Notes: generated by a model not told the origin, from the sequence alone. 61,565 bases of DNA from Candidatus Caccoplasma merdipullorum (GCA_017694415.1 JADIMW010000068.1:1-61565), one strand, 5' to 3'. Positions 1 through 51,388 are shown, counted from the first letter of the stretch. Translations and numbers: made by a program.

Positions 1-1003
1 GTTCGTCTATCTGTTTGCGGGAATATGCCGCACACCCTTCGGCAACTATTCCGCCTACATATTCGGCCGAATCGAATACCGCAAAGTTCTTCCCTTCGGT
101 AAGGGGCTTTATCTCTACAAAACGCATCCCGAATCGGATGTCGGGCTTGTCGCTCCCGTAATATTTCATCGCATCGTGCCATGTCATGCGCGGGAATTCT
201 CCGTCGAACTCTATCCCTTTTATCTCTTTGAATACATGTTTTACCATGCCTTCGAATATGGAGAGTACGTCCTCCTGCTCGACAAACGACATTTCGCAAT
301 CTATTTGAGTAAATTCGGGCTGACGGTCGGCACGCAGATCTTCGTCGCGGAAACACTTGGCTATTTGGAAGTAACGGTCGAAACCGGATACCATAAGCAA
401 CTGTTTGAATGTTTGGGGCGACTGCGGAAGGGCGTAAAATTCGCCGGGGTTCATTCGCGACGGTACGACAAAGTCGCGGGCTCCTTCGGGCGTGGATTTT
501 ATCAGTATGGGGGTCTCGATCTCCAAGAAATTCTGCGAGTCGAGGTATCGCCTTACTTCAAATGCGAGTTTGTGCCGCAATTCAAGATTTTTGCGTACGC
601 AGTCGCGACGCAGGTCGAGGTACCGATACTGCATGCGGAGGTCGTCTCCTCCGTCGCTTTCGTCTTCGATTGTAAAAGGCGGGGTATCGGATGTGCTTAG
701 TATATTCAGACTGTTTACTTCTATCTCTATATCGCCGGTAGGGATATTGCGGTTTTTATTATATCGTTCTTTTACCGTTCCCGTTACCTGTATTACATAT
801 TCGCGTCCCAATTTATTGGCGGCATCGCAAAGGGCTGCATCCACATCGTTGTTGAACACCAACTGCGTTATTCCGTAACGGTCGCGTAAATCGACAAACG
901 TCATCCCCCCCATTTTGCGGATACGCTGTACCCATCCTGCCAATATTGCACTGCTGTTTACATCGGCCATACGCAACTGGCCGCAAGTTACACTTCTATA
1001 CAT
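1..1003 (-). CDS. aspS: Aspartate--tRNA ligase, 5' part (runs off the left edge)
   Basis: My translation from ATG 1003 gives [15 protein letters not shown]...[27 protein letters not shown], then [51 protein letters not shown] and [11 protein letters not shown]. Absent from the ORF track because it has no stop in the window. Confidence 0.97.
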
Positions 1004-1050
1004 AATATAAATATTTCTTGCCGTATTGCTTACTGCATATTTAAGGCATA

Positions 1051-1058
1051 CAAAAGTA
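1051..1058 (-). promoter_or_regulatory. Bacteroidetes -7 promoter element for aspS
   Basis: TACTTTTG on the minus strand, ~50 nt upstream of the aspS ATG; matches TAnnTTTG. Confidence 0.65.
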
Positions 1059-1098
1059 CTATAAAAACAGGTTATTTCAAACTTACCGGACAATTAAT

Positions 1099-1129
1099 AT
1101 TGTAATAAAAATAAATATGATTATCTTTG
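1099..1129 (+). promoter_or_regulatory. Promoter of tRNA-Pro (-33 ATTG, -7 TATCTTTG)
   Basis: ATTG 1099-1102, 19 nt spacer, TATCTTTG 1122-1129, 25 nt before the tRNA. Serves as an internal control for the promoter consensus. Confidence 0.8.
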
Positions 1130-1153
1130 CAGGCGTTTTTAAATATGACGGAA

Positions 1154-1227
1154 CGGGGCGTAGCGCAGTCCGGTAGCGCGCCTGCTTTGGGAGCAGGTGG
1201 TCGCAGGTTCGAATCCTGTCGCCCCGA
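1154..1227 (+). tRNA. tRNA-Pro (TGG)
   Basis: CGGGGCG/CGCCCCG acceptor stem, anticodon arm CCTGC-TTTGGGA-GCAGG, T-loop GGTTCGAATCC; CCA not encoded. Confidence 0.98.
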
Positions 1228-1240
1228 CAAAAGCAATAAA

Positions 1241-1284
1241 CACCGATTATCAAATATATGGGTTTGATAATCGGTGCTTATTTT
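1241..1284 (+). terminator. Intrinsic terminator after tRNA-Pro
   Basis: 14 bp inverted repeat CACCGATTATCAAA (1241-1254) / TTTGATAATCGGTG (1263-1276) followed by CTTATTTT. Confidence 0.75.
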
Positions 1285-1448
1285 ATGCAATTTTCAGCCG
1301 TTCCAAAAAAGGGAAAAAGGGCGCACGTCATACTGCAAATTGCGCAGTTTTGGCACGTTCCAGTTAAATTTGTTTGCGGATTGTTTGTTGCATGATTCTA
1401 ATGCCTCAAAGATTATATCGGATTACTTTTTTACACGGCTTCTTCTTA

Positions 1449-1646
1449 CTAAAGCTGCGCTCTCCAGAAACGTAGTATTTCGCTGCCGAGATAAAATCTT
1501 CGTGCTGATTCTCTGCGGAAGCCACATTTTATATAGCCCGCGTTCGTATATCGCCGTAATGTACTTCGGTTAATACCTAAGATCGCCGATGCCTCGCCTA
1601 TGGAATATCGTCCCGTCAGGCTTACTTGTGGTTCTATTGCCGTCAT
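1449..1646 (-). CDS. Excisionase-like / MerR-type HTH DNA-binding protein
   Basis: 65 aa, YSIGEASAILGINRSTLRRY...G...RRFYLGSEI, the HTH_17/MerR winged-helix pattern typical of mobile elements. Confidence 0.85.
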   Translation of the reverse strand: MTAIEPQVSLTGRYSIGEASAILGINRSTLRRYTNAGYIKCGFRRESARRFYLGSEILRFWRAQL

Positions 1647-2045
1647 TATGCTATGCGTTTAATTGTTATCTCGTTGTAGGTGGATGATACAGCGTATCGT
1701 TTGCCGGTATCGCCTGTTATGCAAAATGTCATGAAATATGGCAGACGTTGGGGGAAGCCATAGTGTCTGTCGAACTTGCAAATTGTTTATTTCAACTCGC
1801 ACATTTATTTTGCTCATATTTTTCAATTATATCTGTAGAATATAGGGTGCAACACGATATAGTTTAAACTTAATGACTAACATCAGCATATAGGTTACGG
1901 TTCAGTTTTCATAGTTAAAAATTTTATTTCGTCTGTATATTCTATCCCCTTTCACATATATGTGTAGTGTGTATCGAACTTTGCATTCGGCAAAATGGAC
2001 TTGAAAAAGTTTATTTTTTCTTTCAACTTTCACTATATTTGCAAT

Positions 2046-2120
2046 GGAATCCAAATCCAAATAGGCCACCTCAGCGAGATTCGTTCGCTGTTGGTCTATG
2101 TCGGTTTGGATTTTTTCTTT
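2046..2120 (+). ncRNA. Candidate orphan structured sRNA A1
   Basis: -7 TATATTTG 2034-2041 (no clear -33). Stems AATCCAAA 2048-55/TTTGGATT 2105-12, ATAGGCCA/TGGTCTAT, CAGCGA/TCGCTG; U-tract to 2120. Confidence 0.55.
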
Positions 2121-2189
2121 GTCAGCATATTACTGCGTTTTTCCTGTTTCAGAATTTGGATTCTCAAAGTTTTTGCTTATATTTGTAGA

Positions 2190-2262
2190 ATATAGGATGC
2201 GGCTCGGCATAATCAAATTTGAAAACTCTGTTTTCATTTGTTTCTGCTCTCGCCTTTCGCTA
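2190..2262 (+). ncRNA. Candidate orphan structured sRNA B
   Basis: TTTG 2155-58, 19 nt, TATATTTG 2178-85. Hairpin with TGAAAAC/GTTTTCA and CAAA/TTTG stems; runs into the next promoter. Confidence 0.4.
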
Positions 2263-2272
2263 TATTTGCAAC

Positions 2273-2347
2273 GGAATCCAAATCCAAATAGGCCACCTCA
2301 GCGAGATTGGTTCGCTGTTGGTCTATGTCGGTTTGGATTTTTTCTTT
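2273..2347 (+). ncRNA. Candidate orphan structured sRNA A2
   Basis: TTTG 2237-40, 20 nt, TATATTTG 2261-68. Same hairpin as A1 (2275-2339) plus U-tract. Confidence 0.6.
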
Positions 2348-2410
2348 GTCAGCATATTACTGCGTTTTTTCAGCTTCGGGATTCTCAAAGTTTTTTATTA
2401 TATTTGCGAC

Positions 2411-2485
2411 ATACTCCAAGTCGAGATATTCAACCTCAGCGAGAGTCTTTTGCTGTTTGTTTATCAAACCTTGGAGTTTTTCTTT
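2411..2485 (+). ncRNA. Candidate orphan structured sRNA A3
   Basis: TTCG 2375-78, 20 nt, TATATTTG 2399-2406. ACTCCAAG 2413-20/CTTGGAGT 2470-77, CAGCGAGA/TTTTGCTG; U-tract. Compensatory changes relative to A1 and A4. Confidence 0.6.
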
Positions 2486-2536
2486 GTCGGCATAGAGTAG
2501 TTCATATTTGAGCACCACTCCTTTGGAGATTATTTA

Positions 2537-4738
2537 CTATCTTTGATGTTGAAAGTTCTGTTCAAATCCGAAATATGCGTCGTTTTTGTATGATTTGCGT
2601 CGGTGAGAATAGGACTTTTTATTTTCCAGATTGTTAATGCGGCCATTCTTTCTGCCGTCCGCTTTTTGACTGTCTCGAATACGTTCGGGAAAAAACTTTT
2701 GCCAAATATTTCTTCCAATTCGGCCCGGTCTTTCGCAAGTGTTTCGGGAGATACCGGCTTTATTCCTGTCAAATGAGAGAAAGGACTCATTTGTTCCATG
2801 GTAAACCACCCTCGGCTCGCCGTTCTCGTCCACCACTTTCGACGCATCAGCTTGCAGGATTGAAACTAAACGCCTATCTTTGTACTCGGCAGAAGACGGT
2901 ACAGGTGCGCCCCCCGTTGATGTAAAGCCATTGGCAATCTCATAGAGATTGCCTTTTTCTATTTCAGTAAGGCTATGGTCATAATACCTCTTGCCTTGCT
3001 TTACCCCAATTGTTACTTTGACTGTGTAATCGACACCACCTATTTTCAGTCCACACACATAGTATCGGTAGCTGTCATACTTGCCGTTACCTTTCTCATT
3101 AGGGAGTTCATCTATAAATATGGCGTTCTCTATGAGCTGTGGCGTAACCGCAAGCGATTTCAGGTGTGCTTCGTTATCCATGCGGGAACGGATGTCTTCT
3201 GTGTTTTTTTCGGTTTCCGGGTTTGGATTCTCAAAGTTTTTTATTATATTTGATGCAGTTTTAAGTTCTTGAGAGGTTATTTCCTGCTGAACATTGGGTG
3301 ATGCTGAGGAGAACCACTCAAGAGCTTTCTTTTTATCAACCCACTGTAAACTATTGTTCTCATTTATGGGGCGAATTATGTTCTCTATACGCCGACCATG
3401 AACGGTAGTTACATCGTTGACCTCAATATAACGTCCTCCATCTTGTATTTCCGATGATAAATCAAACGCAACAAACACATTTCTTCCAATCTTGTCTTTC
3501 ATTTCTGACAGGATCGACAGCGATTTGTCATCCTTTTTAAACACGAATATAGGCTCTGAAATTTTTTGCGGCATATTGATTATTGAAGAAACTTCTACAT
3601 TGTGTTTTTTGTTTGCGCCCTTATTTACAACTCTTTGTCGCATCACTATCGGCAAATTTGGCAAGAATATGCTCATAACTCCATTTGGTAGGCCAAGGTG
3701 AAACATCTCGTTTTTACTCATTTTTCCTTGCTGATAACGTTCCAACTCCTCGTTAAATCGCCTATTGACCTCTTCGAGGTCGTTATCCATGCGGAAGCGT
3801 ATGTCTGCATTCTCCGACGAAAACGAGCCTGTGTTGTCCGTAGCAGACTTGATTATATTACCTAAATTTTCTACTAACCCCAATTTCGTAGCTGGAGTTA
3901 AAAGTATTTCTCCGTCAGCACCTCTATTTCCAGAATATACACCAACAACAATATTATAAGGCTGTTCTCCATAGAACAATTCGTAGTATTTGTCAATATT
4001 TGTATTTAGTTCAGATACTCTACCTACTACAGAAATACCCTGTTCAAATATCTGGTCTCTATAATTATAAGACCTTCCCCTTTCGTTTATGTCGCCATAT
4101 CTATATGCAACAACAATAGAAGGTATTATTCCTTTTCTAATTGAATTTATAAGTATTTCAATATAATCTTTTTGAGAAACTATACTTTCAAGTAAGTTGT
4201 ATGCTTTTTCTTCTTGATAGAATATAGATTCATTATCCCATTCCATCCCAGTTTCATTCTCAATTTCTGAAATCTTATTTACATAATTATTAGCCTTATT
4301 TATTGAAATATCAAGTCTTGTTATGGGATTTCTTTCTTTTATGTTTAAGTATAATCCATCTATCACCCTCGGCTCGCCGTTCTCATCCACAACTTTTGAT
4401 GAATTTGTTTGCAGAAGAGAAAGCAAACGCTTATCTTTGACAGCAGAAACAGCATCTTCCTTGTTGGCAAACCCCGTATTTATGGGGTCAATACTTTCAA
4501 GGAGGCTGTTTTTTTCTATCTCGGTCAGTGCATGGTCGTAATATGCTTCACCGTCTTTCACGCCAACAACCAGCTTGGCGGTATAGTCCACACTGCCCAT
4601 GCGCAATCCCAACACGTAGTAGCGGTAGCTGTCGAAGCCCGTCTTTTCCTTGGTGTTGGCCTCTTCGGTGATGAACACGGCATTTCCTATCATTTGCGGG
4701 ATGTAGGCCGCAGATTTGAGGTGCGCTTCGCTATCCAT
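2537..4738 (-). CDS. Large polyvalent protein fragment (2x LPD3-like C-terminal module, MuF-C-like domain, ART-PolyVal-like remnants)
   Basis: 733 aa. Duplicated YRYYV.GL..G.VDYT.K...GVK.G..YYDH.LTEIEK and KVVDENGEPRV(VYHGT); IKSATDNTGSF; HNVEVSSI.NMP..I.EPIFVF. Recognised from motifs, not from a search. Confidence 0.7.
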   Translation of the reverse strand: MDSEAHLKSAAYIPQMIGNAVFITEEANTKEKTGFDSYRYYVLGLRMGSVDYTAKLVVGVKDGEAYYDHALTEIEKNSLLESIDPINTGFANKEDAVSAVKDKRLLSLLQTNSSKVVDENGEPRVIDGLYLNIKERNPITRLDISINKANNYVNKISEIENETGMEWDNESIFYQEEKAYNLLESIVSQKDYIEILINSIRKGIIPSIVVAYRYGDINERGRSYNYRDQIFEQGISVVGRVSELNTNIDKYYELFYGEQPYNIVVGVYSGNRGADGEILLTPATKLGLVENLGNIIKSATDNTGSFSSENADIRFRMDNDLEEVNRRFNEELERYQQGKMSKNEMFHLGLPNGVMSIFLPNLPIVMRQRVVNKGANKKHNVEVSSIINMPQKISEPIFVFKKDDKSLSILSEMKDKIGRNVFVAFDLSSEIQDGGRYIEVNDVTTVHGRRIENIIRPINENNSLQWVDKKKALEWFSSASPNVQQEITSQELKTASNIIKNFENPNPETEKNTEDIRSRMDNEAHLKSLAVTPQLIENAIFIDELPNEKGNGKYDSYRYYVCGLKIGGVDYTVKVTIGVKQGKRYYDHSLTEIEKGNLYEIANGFTSTGGAPVPSSAEYKDRRLVSILQADASKVVDENGEPRVVYHGTNESFLSFDRNKAGISRNTCERPGRIGRNIWQKFFPERIRDSQKADGRKNGRINNLENKKSYSHRRKSYKNDAYFGFEQNFQHQR
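2550..2625 (+). ncRNA. Candidate structured sRNA C, antisense to the tail of the 733 aa ORF
   Basis: TATCTTTG 2538-45 (no -33 at canonical spacing). AAAGTTCTGTTC 2552-63/GAATAGGACTTT 2607-18, CCGA/TCGG; U-tract. Confidence 0.5.
2887..2958 (+). ncRNA. Candidate antisense sRNA at the end of the second LPD3-like module
   Basis: CTTG 2851-54, 20 nt, TATCTTTG 2875-82. Perfect terminator GGCAATCTC-ATA-GAGATTGCC-TTTTT at 2933-2958 inside the coding sequence. Confidence 0.6.
3257..3334 (+). ncRNA. Candidate antisense sRNA at the end of a MuF-C-like module
   Basis: TTTG 3222-25, 19 nt, TATATTTG 3245-52. AAGTTCTTGAG 3263-73/CTCAAGAGCTT 3317-27, GGTT/AACC, TCCT/AGGA; U-tract. Confidence 0.6.
4444..4515 (+). 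ncRNA. Candidate antisense sRNA at the end of the first LPD3-like module
   Basis: TTTG 4408-11, 20 nt, TATCTTTG 4432-39. AAACAGC 4447-53/GCTGTTT 4505-11, TCCTTG/CAAGGA, ACCCCGTA/TATGGGGT; U-tract. Confidence 0.62.
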
Positions 4739-4859
4739 GCGGAAACGGATGTCTTCTGTGTTTTTTTCGGTTTCAAAATTTGGATTCTCAAAAGTTTTTG
4801 CTTATATATTGTAGAATATAGGATGCGGCTCGGCATAATCAAATTTGAAAACTCTGTTT

Positions 4860-7800
4860 TCATTTGTTTCTGCTCTCGCCTTTCGCTATATTTGCAATGG
4901 AATCCAAGTCAAGATATTCAACCTCAGCGAGAGTCTTTCGCTGTTTGTTTATCAACTCTTGGATTTTTTCTTTGTCGGCATACAATAATTTATCTTGGTT
5001 AATCCAGTTCAACCATTCTGCATTATTCTTTGGAAATATACCTCGTATATCGGAAACTATTAACTCTTTACGTTTTTGATTAAAATGTACTCCAACAAGA
5101 TAATTTTTTCCGTTTTGTTCTATTCCCAATATTAGATTTTGAGATTTTTGAGGATTTCCATACTTAAATATGGCAATAGGTTTTTGTATTGTATAAATAA
5201 GGTTTCTTAAATCCGAAATATTAAACGGGTGTTTTGCTGCTTCCGAATGTTCTTTTAGCATCTTTGAGGACATTTCTATCGGCAGGTCGGGAATGCCTGT
5301 ACTGCGCAATATTTTTCCCGGCCGTCCCAACTTGTATATGTGCCCTTGTGGCAGGGTTCCGCTTATCTGCTGCTCCAACTCCTCGTTGAATCTTCTATTG
5401 ACCTCTTCGAGGTCGTTATCCATGCGGAAACGGATGTCGATCTCGCGTGAGGCATCGAGTACTTTTTTCCATTTTTCGTAGGATTTTGTTTCTTTTTCTA
5501 TTACCTTTGCAAGCGGAAGGGCATCCTCTCTTGAAGATGTGAGGCCTCCCAGATCATTAGAACGGCTTAATGCGTCAGCATTGAGCCGTTCTACGTTTGT
5601 AACCTCGTAGGAGTATTGTTTATTACCCTCTACTGCAGACCTGCTTTCTTTCATTGTGGTTTTAACTCTATACACAATGCCGTCTATTTTAATAGCACCA
5701 TAAAAACGATGAATTAATGTATTGGCATTATAACCGTTCTCTGGTCTGCGTTCTTCATCTGTTCCTTTCTTGTAATCAGGATGTTCTTCTACTTCTATGC
5801 TATTGGCGATAACCTCGTCTAATCGGTTAAGAACTGCAATATGTATGCCTATATTGGTGCTTTTATCTGTTGCTTTTTTGCTAACAGACTTTTCTATACT
5901 TTCTCCACTAATAGTATAGTCAAACGCTGTTCCATAGTTGTCATAATACAAAGTCTTGCCTTGATATTTCTTTCTTGCATCTTCTTCGGCTTGTTTTATG
6001 GCCTCTACGACAGAACCTTTATACTTGTGTTTTGGTATGTTTATCACTTTTAGATTTTCTTCGGCAAGGTTAGGCATTACTGTGCCTTTGTTTTCTACGG
6101 CCCTGTTTACTCTTTCCGAAAATGTTTTGTTGTTGTCGCCGAGCCGGTACAACGATTCGGCCTCGGATTTTATGTGTGTTTCCTCGGCGGCTTTGCGTAA
6201 CCTGGCCAGCAGTGCGCTATTGTCTAACACCTTAACGGCATCGGCTTCCTGCATGTTTTTGTAAGATTGAGCCAGCAGGTGGCGTATGTCGGCATCGTTT
6301 ATGTCGAGGTCTATGCCGATACTGCGCAGAAACTCCCTTATTGCCGATATTATCCGCTGCGGGATGCTCTGCCGTACTCCTCCCTCGGCAAGGCGGGCCA
6401 TATATTCGTCCGCTATTATGCGACGCAGTTCTGCCTCTGCGGTATTCGGATATATCTTTTTGTATGTATCTTCATATGCTTTCTGCCGTTTTTTCGGCAT
6501 GGACCGGTAAACGGCATCGCAGAGTGCCCCGAAAGATTCCTCCCCGAGCAGGGCCCGCAACCCTTTGTGTGCAACTGCCTCGTGCAGGATTGTGGCTTTT
6601 ACGTCCTCCGCCGTTGAATGCATGGAGAGGTTTATGTATACTTTTCCGTTGCCGGGTGTATACCAGCCTTTTGCCCGCATGCGCCGAATGGCTTCCTGCG
6701 GGGTCTTGCCTTGCAGGTCCTCTTCGGGTATGTCTTTCAGGTCGGAGACAAGCACAATGTCCGGAGAGGCGGCAAGTTCTGACCGCAGCTCTCTTGCTGC
6801 CTTGCTTACCACGGCCTTTCTCTCTGCCTTTCGCTTTTCTACTGCCTTGGCTACGTTGTCGAGATACTCCTTGCCGAATATCCTGTCTATCTTCTCCCGC
6901 TCCTTTGCCCGGATTTCGGCAAGTTCTTCTTCCGTCATGTCGATAATATCCCTGCTCCCTGCTTCCTCTCCTGTACGATGCACGGGCGGCTCTTGTACGT
7001 TTGAGGATTCTTTGCTATATTTGACTGTTAAATTAGGAGCAGGGCTGTTTGGGGAACTCACCTCATAGGAATTCCGCTTTGACGGTAGATACAGTTCTGC
7101 TCCGTTTCTTATCTTATTTAAAAGATTATTATTCGTTTTTATGTGGACAGAACTGATATAGTTTTCTAATTCTCCGTCTTTATTTACCACTGTTACATTA
7201 TAAGTCTCTGTTCCATCGTACTTTTTGTACAGTTTTACGTACAAGCGAGAAGCATCGGTGTCTTTTATAACAAAGTCGGGATTTTCCAATGTAGCCCGTA
7301 TTGTTCCCGATACATTTTTTCTACTGTTCTTTATTATCTTGTTGTACGTCTCGCGTCTTATCTGAACAAATTCCCCTAATATGGTTCTGACAGGTGAACG
7401 ATATTCTACAATGAATTCCGATATATTTTCTATTTTTGGGGGCAAAGTTTCTTCTGTGCCTTTATTTAATATTTTCCGAAGCACTTTTTCAGCTTCTTTG
7501 CCCGACAACCATTGTCTGTCTTTTTCCGGTATATGTTCTTTTAATTGTTTGTCCGAATACTCCAAAAAAGCATCTCTGTACAATGCAATGTTGCCTGTCT
7601 CTTCATCGACACGTTCCTGTATAACATCAAAAAGATTATCCAAATCTTTTCCGAAAGTTTCCAATTCTTCCTTTGTCGGATATACAAAACCTCTCAATGC
7701 TTGAGGTGTTTTTTTAAACTCCTCGTATGTCATAAGTCCTTTCTGTTCTTTTCCTTTGTGCAGGTTAAATTCGGAGTCAAAAAGTTGATATATTTCGTAT

Positions 7801-14886: not shown

Positions 14887-15094
14887 CTAATTCGTTAGAT
14901 TGTCGATAGGGTATTCCCGTTTGCTTTTGTTTGGATTCGTGAATTGACAAATTTTGCTTTCGGAATAGTTGGTTTGGGTGCATCCGTGCAAACCTCGGGA
15001 TCGACCCTGCTGTCGGGGATTATAAGGATTGGCCGCCAATTACGCGCATGCACTGTGGCTTGAACAATGGCGATTGCGGAATCTGAACAGGATG

Positions 15095-15277
15095 TTAGTC
15101 GCGATGTTCAGTGGTTGTAAAAACGGATGATCTTTTGTCCTTTCTGAAAAGGGACAGGAAACCTTTTACTACACCATGGTAAACGAAGTAAAGCAACATG
15201 ATCGGTAATCCCACGACGAGGGCGAACCATGTTATAACCGTGAAGGCGGATGCCAAGAATGTAAGAAATGTTTCCAT
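15095..15277 (-). CDS. Small membrane protein
   Basis: 60 aa, hydrophobic N-terminal two thirds then a basic tail; minus-strand TACATTTG promoter element at ~15299-15306. Confidence 0.65.
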   Translation of the reverse strand: METFLTFLASAFTVITWFALVVGLPIMLLYFVYHGVVKGFLSLFRKDKRSSVFTTTEHRD

Positions 15278-15397
15278 ACTGTTATTTATAACCTGTTACA
15301 AATGTAGCGATTTTTTTTAAGATTGGCATGTATATTTGATTATTAATATTTTGTTCCGATCTATATCGTCATATCTGCTTTATCGTGTTTTTTGCCG

Positions 15398-15946
15398 CTA
15401 CACAAAGTCGCACAGGTACAGGTGCGTATCGTCGTCTATCATTTCGGGTGTTATTTTCGGGTATCGCCGGTTGTGGCGTTTCGGCCACGGCAGTAACCCG
15501 TCTTTGGGATATACGGGATAATTTTCTACTACGGTGTACTTCGACATGTCTGCCGTACCCCGGCGATATATGTTCCATGTTTTCTTGTTATCGACCGTAT
15601 AATGGATATGTTCTGCTACTGTAGGCAACGACAGCAGGGTATCGATATATTCGCGGAAAGTATCGACATCGCCTTTTTCCAATATTATGCGCCCTACTGC
15701 TCCGGGTTTCAACAGTACTTCCTGCAACAACTGGCAATCGCCTTTTTCATATTTTATTTTCCCGTGTCCGTAATATGACGGCAATATGGCGTTTTTTTCC
15801 ATACAGACTCGTATGTCGAAGTACCTTACTCCTGCGGCATATTGTTCTTCGGGGGTTTTATCTTGACACTTGCTTGTAAAGTTTATCAGTTTCATCCACC
15901 ATTTATGCGGTTTCAGATACGTCATCGTGTTATGGCTTCCTGTCAT
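15398..15946 (-). CDS. PI-PLC X-domain-like phosphodiesterase (phage-type)
   Basis: GSHNTMTY...CQDKT.EEQY.AGVRYFDIRV...HG matches the PI-PLC catalytic His motifs. Confidence 0.75.
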   Translation of the reverse strand: MTGSHNTMTYLKPHKWWMKLINFTSKCQDKTPEEQYAAGVRYFDIRVCMEKNAILPSYYGHGKIKYEKGDCQLLQEVLLKPGAVGRIILEKGDVDTFREYIDTLLSLPTVAEHIHYTVDNKKTWNIYRRGTADMSKYTVVENYPVYPKDGLLPWPKRHNRRYPKITPEMIDDDTHLYLCDFV

Positions 15947-16122
15947 AATCCTGTTTTTGGTTCGTGGTTATCTTATGTTGTTATGCGTCTGCGAATTTAC
16001 ATGTGGACGATATGGATGTTTTGTTATTTTTATAAAAACAGAAAGGGGTAACGCCGATTTATTCTCGACATCACCCCTTTGGGTTTTTATTTATGAGATA
16101 CTGCTTATTCCTGCCTGCGCTG

Positions 16123-50972: not shown

Positions 50973-51388
50973 ATATTTCGTATCCGACCAATGTCAAAAA
51001 CAGGATGTAACCGGCATTTTCCAACTTGAAAATTTCCTTTTTCAGTCCTCCCCTGCTCTCATCTTTCGCTGTCTTCAACCAAACGAACTTTGTCAAACAT
51101 CATTCTATATTTTACAAATATATATATTTATATTCTTTTAGACAAGGGATGTGTTTTTTTACTATATAAATATATGCTTTTTTATATTAAACAAATTTAT
51201 ACAATATAATCGCGAATGGAAGTTTAACTGGTATGAGACATTTTAATTATAAAATTCTTTTGTCCGAATACTGTTTGATGAATAGCATATGTTGGGCTTG
51301 CATAATGGATTCAGGAACATTTAAGGAGATTAACAGCTTTCCTGCTCACGACCGCCGTATGTTGTTTTATTTTCGTTTTTGTTAAACT

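Follow-up and report, generated by a model that had tools for sequence, protein, structure and literature searches.

A putative cis-antisense module in the tail of MuF_C domains and a dispersed promoter-like repeat at the broken end of a polyvalent-protein gene of Candidatus Caccoplasma merdipullorum

The OOP RNA of phage lambda, the RNA-OUT of IS10 and the sar RNA of phage P22 are short cis-antisense RNAs of phages and mobile elements, OOP being reportedly about 77 nt long and located opposite the 3' end of cII. A unit of similar build occurs in a 61,565-nt stretch of DNA from Candidatus Caccoplasma merdipullorum (GCA_017694415.1, JADIMW010000068.1:1-61565), here called the window, where three copies (A1, A2 and A3) belong to an array at positions 1995-2625 and a fourth (A4) is attached to a complete MuF_C domain of a polyvalent-protein gene read from the minus strand. 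Like these RNAs, the unit is small, appears to have its own promoter and intrinsic terminator, consists mainly of one long imperfect hairpin and lies opposite a coding region, facing the end of a domain much as OOP is said to face the end of its gene. Unlike them, it travels with one domain cassette, the MuF_C tail, across phyla and inside giant multi-domain genes; it also doubles as a conserved peptide and exists as orphan copies without the gene, its transcript and target effect being predicted ones.

Closer in host range are the cis-antisense RNAs of Bacteroides: the sections of PMC7366714 that deal with them report 78 such RNAs in B. thetaiotaomicron and a DonS family of 78-128 nt, and link a promoter of the sigma-ABfr type, with the Bacteroidetes -7 consensus TAnnTTTG, to 52% of the cis-antisense RNA candidates. 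The module described here has a similar size and promoter type; however, DonS-type RNAs are, in those sections, divergent to host susC genes, whereas this module sits inside a gene of a mobile element and has no match in Rfam. As for antisense RNAs in MuF or polyvalent genes, no apt description was found among the literature titles listed, although the supplementary cis-antisense tables of PMC7366714 could bear on the question.

The orphan C-terminal cassettes of Rhs and CDI systems resemble the array in that they are fragments starting from a conserved junction downstream of the main gene, are variants unlike the resident copy and vary among strains; the fragments analysed here differ from them in spanning 32-45 codons with stops, in having no immunity open reading frame (ORF) and in that the part retained is a nucleic-acid module. 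In type III toxin-antitoxin systems such as ToxIN, a structured RNA repeat is linked to an RNase, and here too a structured RNA would be linked to a predicted RNase; in contrast to ToxIN, where the repeats share the strand of the toxin gene and lie upstream of it, the units run antisense within the 3' end of the domain, with a single one per phage record.

The explanation that we regard as the best, and as probable though far from certain, combines an antisense module of the MuF_C tail, the insertion of a dispersed promoter-like repeat (PLR) and an array born of recombination. The region is the broken, tRNA-proximal 3' end of a polyvalent gene, with two kinds of repeats interleaved. A1 to A4 are copies of a module of about 100 nt, whose sense strand codes for the MuF_C tail and the start of an F-E-N-P linker, and whose antisense strand carries a -7 box, a 24-pair, three-helix hairpin and a U-tract. 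The predicted product is an antisense RNA of about 80 nt, starting a few bases past the box and ending at its own terminator, which, by analogy with the RNAs above, may pair with the MuF_C-tail stretch of the polyvalent mRNA from the same or a related element, and either lower or cut this mRNA. A2 and A4 would be transcribed from the full PLR promoter, and recombination would have removed the domain bodies and left the modules.

The module opposite the MuF_C tail

The units, and the two ORFs to which they relate, are the following (bit scores are those of a covariance model of the unit):

2013-2141, plus strand: orphan A1 (type I), with -7 box at 2034-2041, hairpin at 2049-2111 and U-tract at 2112-2120; 120.1 bits
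2240-2368, plus strand: orphan A2 (type I), with -7 box at 2261-2268, hairpin at 2276-2338 and U-tract at 2339-2347; 113.3 bits
2378-2506, plus strand: orphan A3 (type II), native linker retained, with -7 box at 2399-2406, hairpin at 2414-2476 and U-tract at 2477-2485; 121.1 bits
4866-4994, plus strand: A4 (type II), attached to the full MuF_C domain, with -7 box at 4887-4894, hairpin at 4902-4964 and U-tract at 4965-4973; 114.1 bits
2538-2625, plus strand: unit C, with a TATCTTTG box, a weaker hairpin and a T-run; outside the conserved family
3224-3355, plus strand: weak covariance-model match (35.6 bits) in the divergent tail of the second MuF_C domain, with a -7 box at 3245 and TTTG 19 nt upstream
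4860-13586, minus strand: polyvalent-protein ORF of 2908 aa, with PBECR2, ddrB-ParB, LPD5, LPD1, LPD3 and MuF_C
2537-4738, minus strand: polyvalent-protein ORF of 733 aa, with LPD3, MuF_C, LPD3 and a truncated ART-PolyVal

An earlier note on this DNA had read the array as five consecutive promoter and hairpin units, with -7 boxes at 2034, 2178, 2261, 2399 and 2538. All five TAnnTTTG motifs are present on the plus strand, a further one starts at 4887 on the intact gene, and the six conform to the sigma-ABfr -7 box; in the whole window, this motif has 50 matches on the plus strand and 24 on the minus strand. Folded as plus-strand RNA, A1 (2041-2140) reaches -35.1 kcal/mol (z -4.8), A2 -35.0 (z -4.2), A3 -27.8 (z -3.2) and A4 -26.3 (z -3.6), and a T-rich run lies directly 3' of each of these hairpins, so that all four display the stable hairpin and immediate U-run of an intrinsic terminator; a simple terminator scan retrieved the inner stems only, at 2437-2455 and 4925-4943. 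The hairpin and U-tract that had been attributed to the units were thus recovered for A1, A2 and A3, whereas unit C folds weakly (-23.0 kcal/mol, z -2.2, with 7 of 200 shuffles equally good) and has no match to the covariance model; its proposed membership among the partner units is not supported.

Read on the minus strand, the A units give Y-A-D-K-E-K ... A-N-I, i.e. the tail that follows MuF_C, and then the linker I-K-N-F-E-N-P. The MuF_C domain proper (Pfam PF18819) occupies residues 2778-2877 of the 2908-aa ORF (E 1.5e-19), where the parent domain matches the profile, and a second copy is found in the 733-aa ORF (E 9.7e-15). In A1 to A3, three-frame translation gives stops and unrelated sequence directly before Y-A-D-K-E-K: these are tail fragments of 32-45 codons, with stops and with the domain body absent, and no Pfam-matching ORF exists in 1995-2640. 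A1 and A2 form a first type, with only two differences in 96 positions (at 2045 and 2082, both outside the paired columns), while A3 resembles A4 and represents, with it, a second type. The earlier note had set A1, A2 and A3 all apart from A4, which by type holds for the first two (A1 is 81% identical to A4 over model columns 20-113), A3 being of the type of A4; its observation that the similarity stops near the U-tract, at 2494 vs 4982, is borne out by the A3/A4 comparison.

The same tail was folded in MuF_C relatives from 13 genome loci (Bacteroidales, Oscillospiraceae, Treponema, Spirochaetia and Christensenella) and 42 viral records. The hairpin is present in all 30 unique tails, and its antisense fold is the stabler one in 27 of them, with a mean of -36.2 kcal/mol vs -30.5 kcal/mol for the sense strand. 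A gapless alignment of 36 units, for which the peptide consensus is Y-x-D-K-E-K-I-Q ... Y-L-D-L-D-S-x-A-K/N-I/V, led to a three-helix structure of 24 pairs, in which 92.2% of the 864 cells pair (85.2 +/- 0.5 in column shuffles) and 14 of the 24 pairs have changes on both sides (6.8 in shuffles); none of 500 shuffles reached the observed value for these or any other of the five pairing measures, and controls in which the structure was slid along the alignment gave 30-46% pairing only. RNAalifold independently recovered 17 of the 24 pairs, nine of them with compensatory change. In the strand test, 797 of the 864 cells pair on the antisense strand vs 703 on the sense strand, and wobble-only pairs number 103 vs 9. 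In two spirochaete copies, the peptide is different past A-E-V, and the outer stem is retained with another partner.

The -7 box lies at fixed columns in 26 of the 36 aligned units and in 55 of 70 unique metagenome units. It is made by three codons (A/T, K/N and I/V/L) whose synonymous positions are nearly frozen: Ile is ATA in 16 of 16 cases (background 32%), Val is GTA in 8 of 9 (22%), Leu is TTA in 2 of 2, Ala is GCA in 18 of 19 (30%) and Thr is ACA in 9 of 9 (28%), the background being codon use in the same ORFs, with a range of 15-32%. The only Val other than GTA belongs to the Oscillospiraceae copy. A nearby Pro codon uses all four synonyms (CCA 16, CCC 8, CCT 2 and CCG 1). Concerning the U-tract, which derives from the K-E-K codons, at least 8 T in the 12 nt after the hairpin were counted in 66 of the 70 unique metagenome units.

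On this comparative evidence, the alignments show that selection at the nucleotide level maintains the hairpin, the box and the U-tract individually, in all three cases on the strand opposite to the gene, and a short cis-antisense RNA with its own terminator would be the simplest reading of it. The covariation, the bias in wobble pairs and the fixed synonymous sites also uphold the proposal of the earlier note that the retained piece is an RNA-type unit and not merely a set of codons. Taken as a whole, the module has the look of a new cis-antisense family that is linked to a protein-domain cassette.

The F-E-N-P motif of the linker, 3' of the tail, is itself conserved across Bacteroidales, Oscillospiraceae and viral records; where K or N follows it and its Pro is encoded as CCA, it gives a TTTG 19 nt upstream of the -7 box of the opposite strand.

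As for the distribution of the module, the covariance model gave, in the genome under study, the four strong hits A1 to A4 and the weak one at 3224-3355. Among 150 other genomes of the order, five had one hit each, and so did five phage records, three of which are rated 98-100% complete: all ten other genomes or phage records with the module carry a single copy. A scan of metagenomes with the exact 28-nt hairpin core retrieved 80 loci with 85 units, and a MuF_C body was found by tblastn beside 69 of these. Among the 16 units without it, one is next to a contig edge, and the body is broken or altered in four and partly kept, in another frame, in one (L084), which leaves ten orphans (L082, L097, L117, L123, L134, L141, the second unit of L155, L157, L158 and L161), or nine independent ones, since L117 and L141 are near-identical. 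Counted from the start of the core, the likeness of these nine to attached units breaks off between +30 and +50, with the end of the U-tract at +48; on the other side, the similarity of four of them sets in between -43 and -50, shortly before the box (-38). Independent orphans have thus kept about the same stretch as those of the array, roughly from promoter to terminator as the earlier note had it, and this stretch behaves, as far as such copies can tell, as a module able to outlive its domain.

Several contigs have two units 200-900 nt apart. In L123 (918-1041 and 1809-1934) and L077 (1501-1625 and 1971-2093), contigs of other organisms without obvious MuF_C context, such pairs are 470-890 nt apart and lie inside longer direct repeats. 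At L097:5190-5259, only the hairpin and U-tract are present, 24 nt after a gene for a carbohydrate-binding protein and before an ATP-synthase subunit gene of the same strand; this copy seems to have been reused as an ordinary terminator.

Among GenBank phages and PLSDB plasmids, neither the DNA of a viral unit nor its MuF_C protein had a match, and no cultured carrier can be named from them; neither Phage_Mu_F nor a T4SS coupling protein was found in five viral records.

If it is transcribed, the module would be a widespread and undescribed small RNA, made from the strand opposite to a domain cassette that is shuffled among the giant polyvalent genes of gut phages and elements, and a single stretch of about 100 nt would serve as peptide, promoter, structured RNA and terminator together. 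This would explain why the tail is conserved far above its domain, and would show at which points polyvalent genes are regulated or divided.

The promoter-like repeat, the split gene and the origin of the array

The remaining unit of the array, B, belongs to another kind of repeat. The features that bear on it and on the end of the gene are:

2180-2273, plus strand: PLR copy (unit B), inserted directly after the native box and carrying TTTG-N20-TATATTTG; its own box (2261-2268) now precedes A2
4807-4899, plus strand: second PLR copy, between linker and tail, 99% identical to 2183-2275 over 93 nt; absent at the corresponding junction of the sister locus L016
2130-2185, plus strand: truncated inter-domain linker in antisense (ISKNFENPNSETGKTQ followed by a stop), ending in the native -7 box 2178-2185
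1813-1861, plus strand: decayed linker end and first bases of the dispersed repeat (a B-like start), 76% identical to 2163-2211
1154-1228, plus strand: tRNA-Pro (TGG), left border of the low-GC island; it also flanks the intact gene in L016
1449-1646, minus strand: helix-turn-helix ORF of 65 aa (HTH_17/MerR-like, excisionase-like), missing from the L016 locus

A search of the genome with 1780-2640 gave 49 matches, nearly all to 2184-2271, and a profile of this 85-nt repeat had 62 hits, grouped in 33 arrays that hold one to four copies and often lie at contig ends (e.g. G000:C39:1-294, C20:16-374, C17:6840-7198 and C86:17539-17878); a further copy lies in the window at 50987-51077. Its ends are conserved and its central hairpin is variable, the pairing being kept despite different sequences; it terminates, at its 3' side, in a -7 box, which TTTG precedes by 20 nt in the copies of the window. 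Among the 33 arrays, two are in the island, five abut contig ends and 26 can be assessed, of which 19 have a co-oriented ORF of at least 100 aa starting within 150 nt downstream, the genes being unrelated housekeeping ones. The pattern TTTG-N18-22-TAnnTTTG occurs in 16 of 52 near-full copies, with a genome-wide density of 0.046 per kb per strand. The peptides quoted in the earlier note are correct as sequences; that of unit B (ERREQKQMKTEF...), however, is no domain tail but, according to the genome profile, the antisense of the 85-nt repeat and of the inter-domain linker, and the RNA partner of a missing domain that had been seen in unit B is replaced by a host promoter-like repeat at 33 loci. 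The decayed B-like start that the note had placed at about 1809-1847 does exist, at 1813-1861. A further candidate, 1956-2033, was rejected as a degenerate PLR: it is 33% identical without gaps, has no profile hit, and only its last bases before the box are PLR-like.

Promoter-bearing dispersed repeats include the REP/BIME elements and the Correia elements of Neisseria. With these, and with the intergenic repeats of halovirus HF2, the PLR shares a short length, multiple and often tandem copies, a position mostly just upstream of co-oriented genes, promoter boxes and a variable hairpin; unlike them, it is patchy (two of 41 related genomes by BLAST) and is here inserted in a coding region. When the DNA of the array was searched against GenBank phages and PLSDB plasmids, PLR-like pieces only were found, in six phage-collection records and one Phocaeicola record, while a seventh phage-collection record gave a separate match of 45 nt. 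No apt published description of a Bacteroidales promoter repeat of this kind was found among the literature titles listed. The PLR would thus be a second uncharted element, which appears to supply promoters to many housekeeping genes in this genome and can split genes on landing.

The copies at 2180-2273 and 4807-4899 each lie directly after a native TATATTTG box and end in a TATATTTG box of their own, and the PLR consensus ends in 11 nt that match the native sequence most often found at the box. The alignments show that A2 and A4 now stand behind a full -33/-7 promoter pattern brought by the PLR, as judged by motif: TTTG lies 20 nt upstream in both, and 19 nt upstream of the box of B, while A1, A3 and C are without it.

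The sister locus L016, which belongs to an uncultured Bacteroidales genome, shares 96% amino-acid identity in the MuF_C domain and has the same tRNA-Pro and flanking host gene. Its polyvalent gene is one continuous ORF, in which the linker directly follows the first MuF_C tail, PLR and array both being absent, and which continues through further domains, the second MuF_C and a last domain, to stop 50 nt from the tRNA-Pro. Because the L016 gene runs without a PLR through the same junction, the copy at 4807-4899 is, on this comparison, the insertion that split the polyvalent gene into the 2908-aa and 733-aa ORFs. It may have split it into two coupled ORFs, rather than killing the downstream part. 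At 4860-4863, inside the inserted PLR, the stop codon of the 2908-aa ORF shares bases with an ATG (ATGA), and contigs from two other samples are without the single bases 4790 and 4808, which shift the frame just after the insert; without these extra bases, an N-terminal extension of the 733-aa ORF, in frame with it, would start from this ATG.

Since L016 has neither the array, nor the excisionase-like ORF, nor the ART remnant, none of these is common to the locus, and the comparison of strains suggested by the earlier note speaks against the array being a conserved feature of this tRNA-Pro site. The two loci also differ at L016:6624-7339 vs window 4399-4739, where L016 has another domain (LPD3-type, about 715 nt, vs about 340 nt in the window) between conserved linkers, with flanks 95-100% identical: a clean domain swap at linker boundaries.

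The array is a mosaic. A2 is near-identical to A4 from the linker, through the PLR and to the first 14 nt of the tail, after which the tails visibly diverge; A1 and A2 have a common junction to the truncated linker, and that of A3 is different. Contigs from other samples were aligned at 90% identity, a level at which repeats call for caution: one joins 2294 to 2433 and lacks 138 nt, i.e. one unit, giving an A2/A3 chimera, another has the linker, MuF_C and LPD3 modules in a different order, and a third has 357 other letters at 4732-4739. A 22-nt junction pattern, searched as an exact match for strain comparison, gave no stretch in the metagenome collection. Cassette-like recombination is raised for polyvalent loci in the corresponding part of Iyer et al. 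(PMC5512222). Because of the mosaic identity, the strain variants and the intact sister locus, the array is best read as a recombination product, most likely one in which the repeated linkers, tails and PLR copies recombined with one another as the gene end decayed. As a side observation, the RNA libraries X14 and X15 have a higher contig depth over 2104-2639 than beside it, to which PLR copies elsewhere contribute, and no inference is drawn from it.

Explanations of the module and of the array

Several points weigh against the reading as a cis-antisense module with a recombination-born array. The box is missing in 10 of the 36 aligned units, including all three spirochaete copies, the Oscillospiraceae copy and the L016 copy, so that the promoter is not universal though the hairpin is; its absence from the spirochaete and Oscillospiraceae copies fits a promoter type specific to Bacteroidetes. 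A -33 TTTG, 17-23 nt upstream, accompanies only 16 of the 55 native metagenome boxes and is absent in A1 and A3. The compared sequences are related by descent, and the counts overstate their independence; likewise, picking metagenome units by an exact core favours intact hairpins. The data from RNA libraries are assembled contigs, without strand or transcript ends. Finally, the order of the modules over 2144-2198 is unbridged among the contigs listed, which come from four runs, and A1/A2, like the pair of PLR copies, are near-identical, so that short-read assembly could have put them in the wrong place.

The idea of the earlier note, that the orphans have been selected as an RNA immunity array, whose variant RNAs would act in trans on related phages or elements with the host PLR recruited as their driver, is possible but doubtful. 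A1 and A2 are indeed closer to foreign viral units (88-89% identity) than to the resident A4 (81%), their two differences spare the paired columns, and A2 and A4 stand behind the complete PLR promoter; the genome has four strong units where each of the ten other genomes or phage records has one, and in each of the nine independent orphans from metagenomes the end lies within about 10 nt of the U-tract, with a start just upstream of the box in four. However, the sister locus is without an array, the A2/A3 chimera lacking 138 nt is what is expected of any tandem repeat, and the 11-nt microhomology can explain the insertion site of the PLR without selection. Orphans are also found in the vicinity of tRNA genes, one at about 350 nt from a cluster of them and another at about 770 nt from a tRNA-Ser, and decayed remains of integrated elements are to be expected at such sites. 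The orphan copies nevertheless offer a concrete test case for RNA-based exclusion between related elements. A broader version, in which the hairpin RNA is the partner of MuF_C, a predicted RNase, either as antisense brake or as direct inhibitor, and in which orphan variants and the host promoter repeat form an RNA-only immunity or exclusion array against related phages and elements, is one that we would hold to be rather improbable on these sequences.

That the hairpin RNA is a direct protein partner of MuF_C, i.e. an inhibitor or substrate mimic comparable to a type III antitoxin, is an unlikely analogy. The section of PMC5512222 on this domain describes MuF-C as a PBECR domain (Barnase-EndoU-ColicinE5/D-RelE-like), with a predicted RNase activity. 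The module is tied to this single domain in 69 of the 85 metagenome units and is structured rather than open, as protein-bound RNAs often are; yet the unit is antisense and intragenic, whereas the type III antitoxins that have been described are same-strand tandem repeats upstream of the toxin, and the mRNA offers a cis-antisense RNA a perfectly matched target in any case.

Just as unlikely is a structure acting as DNA, in which the hairpin or cruciform would attract recombination, mark a module boundary in domain shuffling or give the mobile element a single-strand signal, and box and T-run would be incidental. The hairpin foot is where the orphans have their breakpoints, as do an internal deletion (L143) and a domain swap (L155), strain variants recombine in or beside the units, and the strand-biased G-T pairs would stabilise single-stranded DNA as well. 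A DNA hairpin, on the other hand, has no need of the TAnnTTTG and T-run that codon choice maintains, phage records rated 98-100% complete contain a single module per genome, and no recombinase linked to it was found within the window in the Pfam survey.

An assembly artefact, in which near-identical repeats (A1/A2 and the PLR copies) would have been mis-joined by a short-read assembler, is very unlikely to account for the array. The assembly has 88 contigs, with PLR copies often at their ends, and the stretch 2144-2198 is left unbridged among the contigs listed from the four other runs; but contigs of other studies reproduce 1699-2144 (A1 and its left flank) and 2198-2502 (the PLR end, A2, the linker and A3) with 0-9 differences, and the units are found in many independent records.

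Scarcely any credence is given to a sense-strand signal, i.e. a programmed frameshift or pausing site at the MuF_C end made of the A-run of the K-E-K codons and the downstream hairpin: a run of 5-7 A directly precedes the hairpin in 32 of the 36 units and the sense fold is still stable, but the wobble pairs and the 94 fewer cells that pair on the sense strand point the other way, four of the 36 units keep a T-rich tract without an A5 run, and the conserved -7 box is left unexplained.

Surroundings of the locus

The window starts with a host gene, followed by the tRNA-Pro, from which a low-GC island extends to about 16 kb; ordinary host genes resume past this point, according to the Pfam and ORF survey. 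The array sits between the tRNA-Pro and the 3' end of the 733-aa ORF, in which ART-PolyVal covers only positions 1-42 of the 140 of its Pfam profile. The right border of the island is not fixed, because no sensible copy, of at least 12 nt, of the tRNA 3' end was found elsewhere in the window as an attachment repeat. Tandem Repeats Finder gave nothing beyond micro-repeats of 6 and 9 nt, and a Sigma-70 promoter scan, with 11 sites vs 11.3 expected, is uninformative for a Bacteroidetes genome. Rfam 15 gave no match in the array region (window 1-16000, E up to 1); elsewhere, it gave the tRNA-Pro and a sub-threshold match to the skipping-rope RNA, at 14060-14135 in the region of a 532-aa ORF (24.7 bits vs a gathering threshold of 36.7, E 0.056).

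On the minus strand of the island, the polyvalent gene is in pieces: this 532-aa ORF, with LPD13, then the 2908-aa ORF and the 733-aa ORF. The first two overlap by about 300 nt in different frames, at 13288-13586, and a peptide repeat of the 532-aa ORF recurs, frame-shifted, at the start of the 2908-aa ORF; the gene seems to be broken or frameshifted there too.

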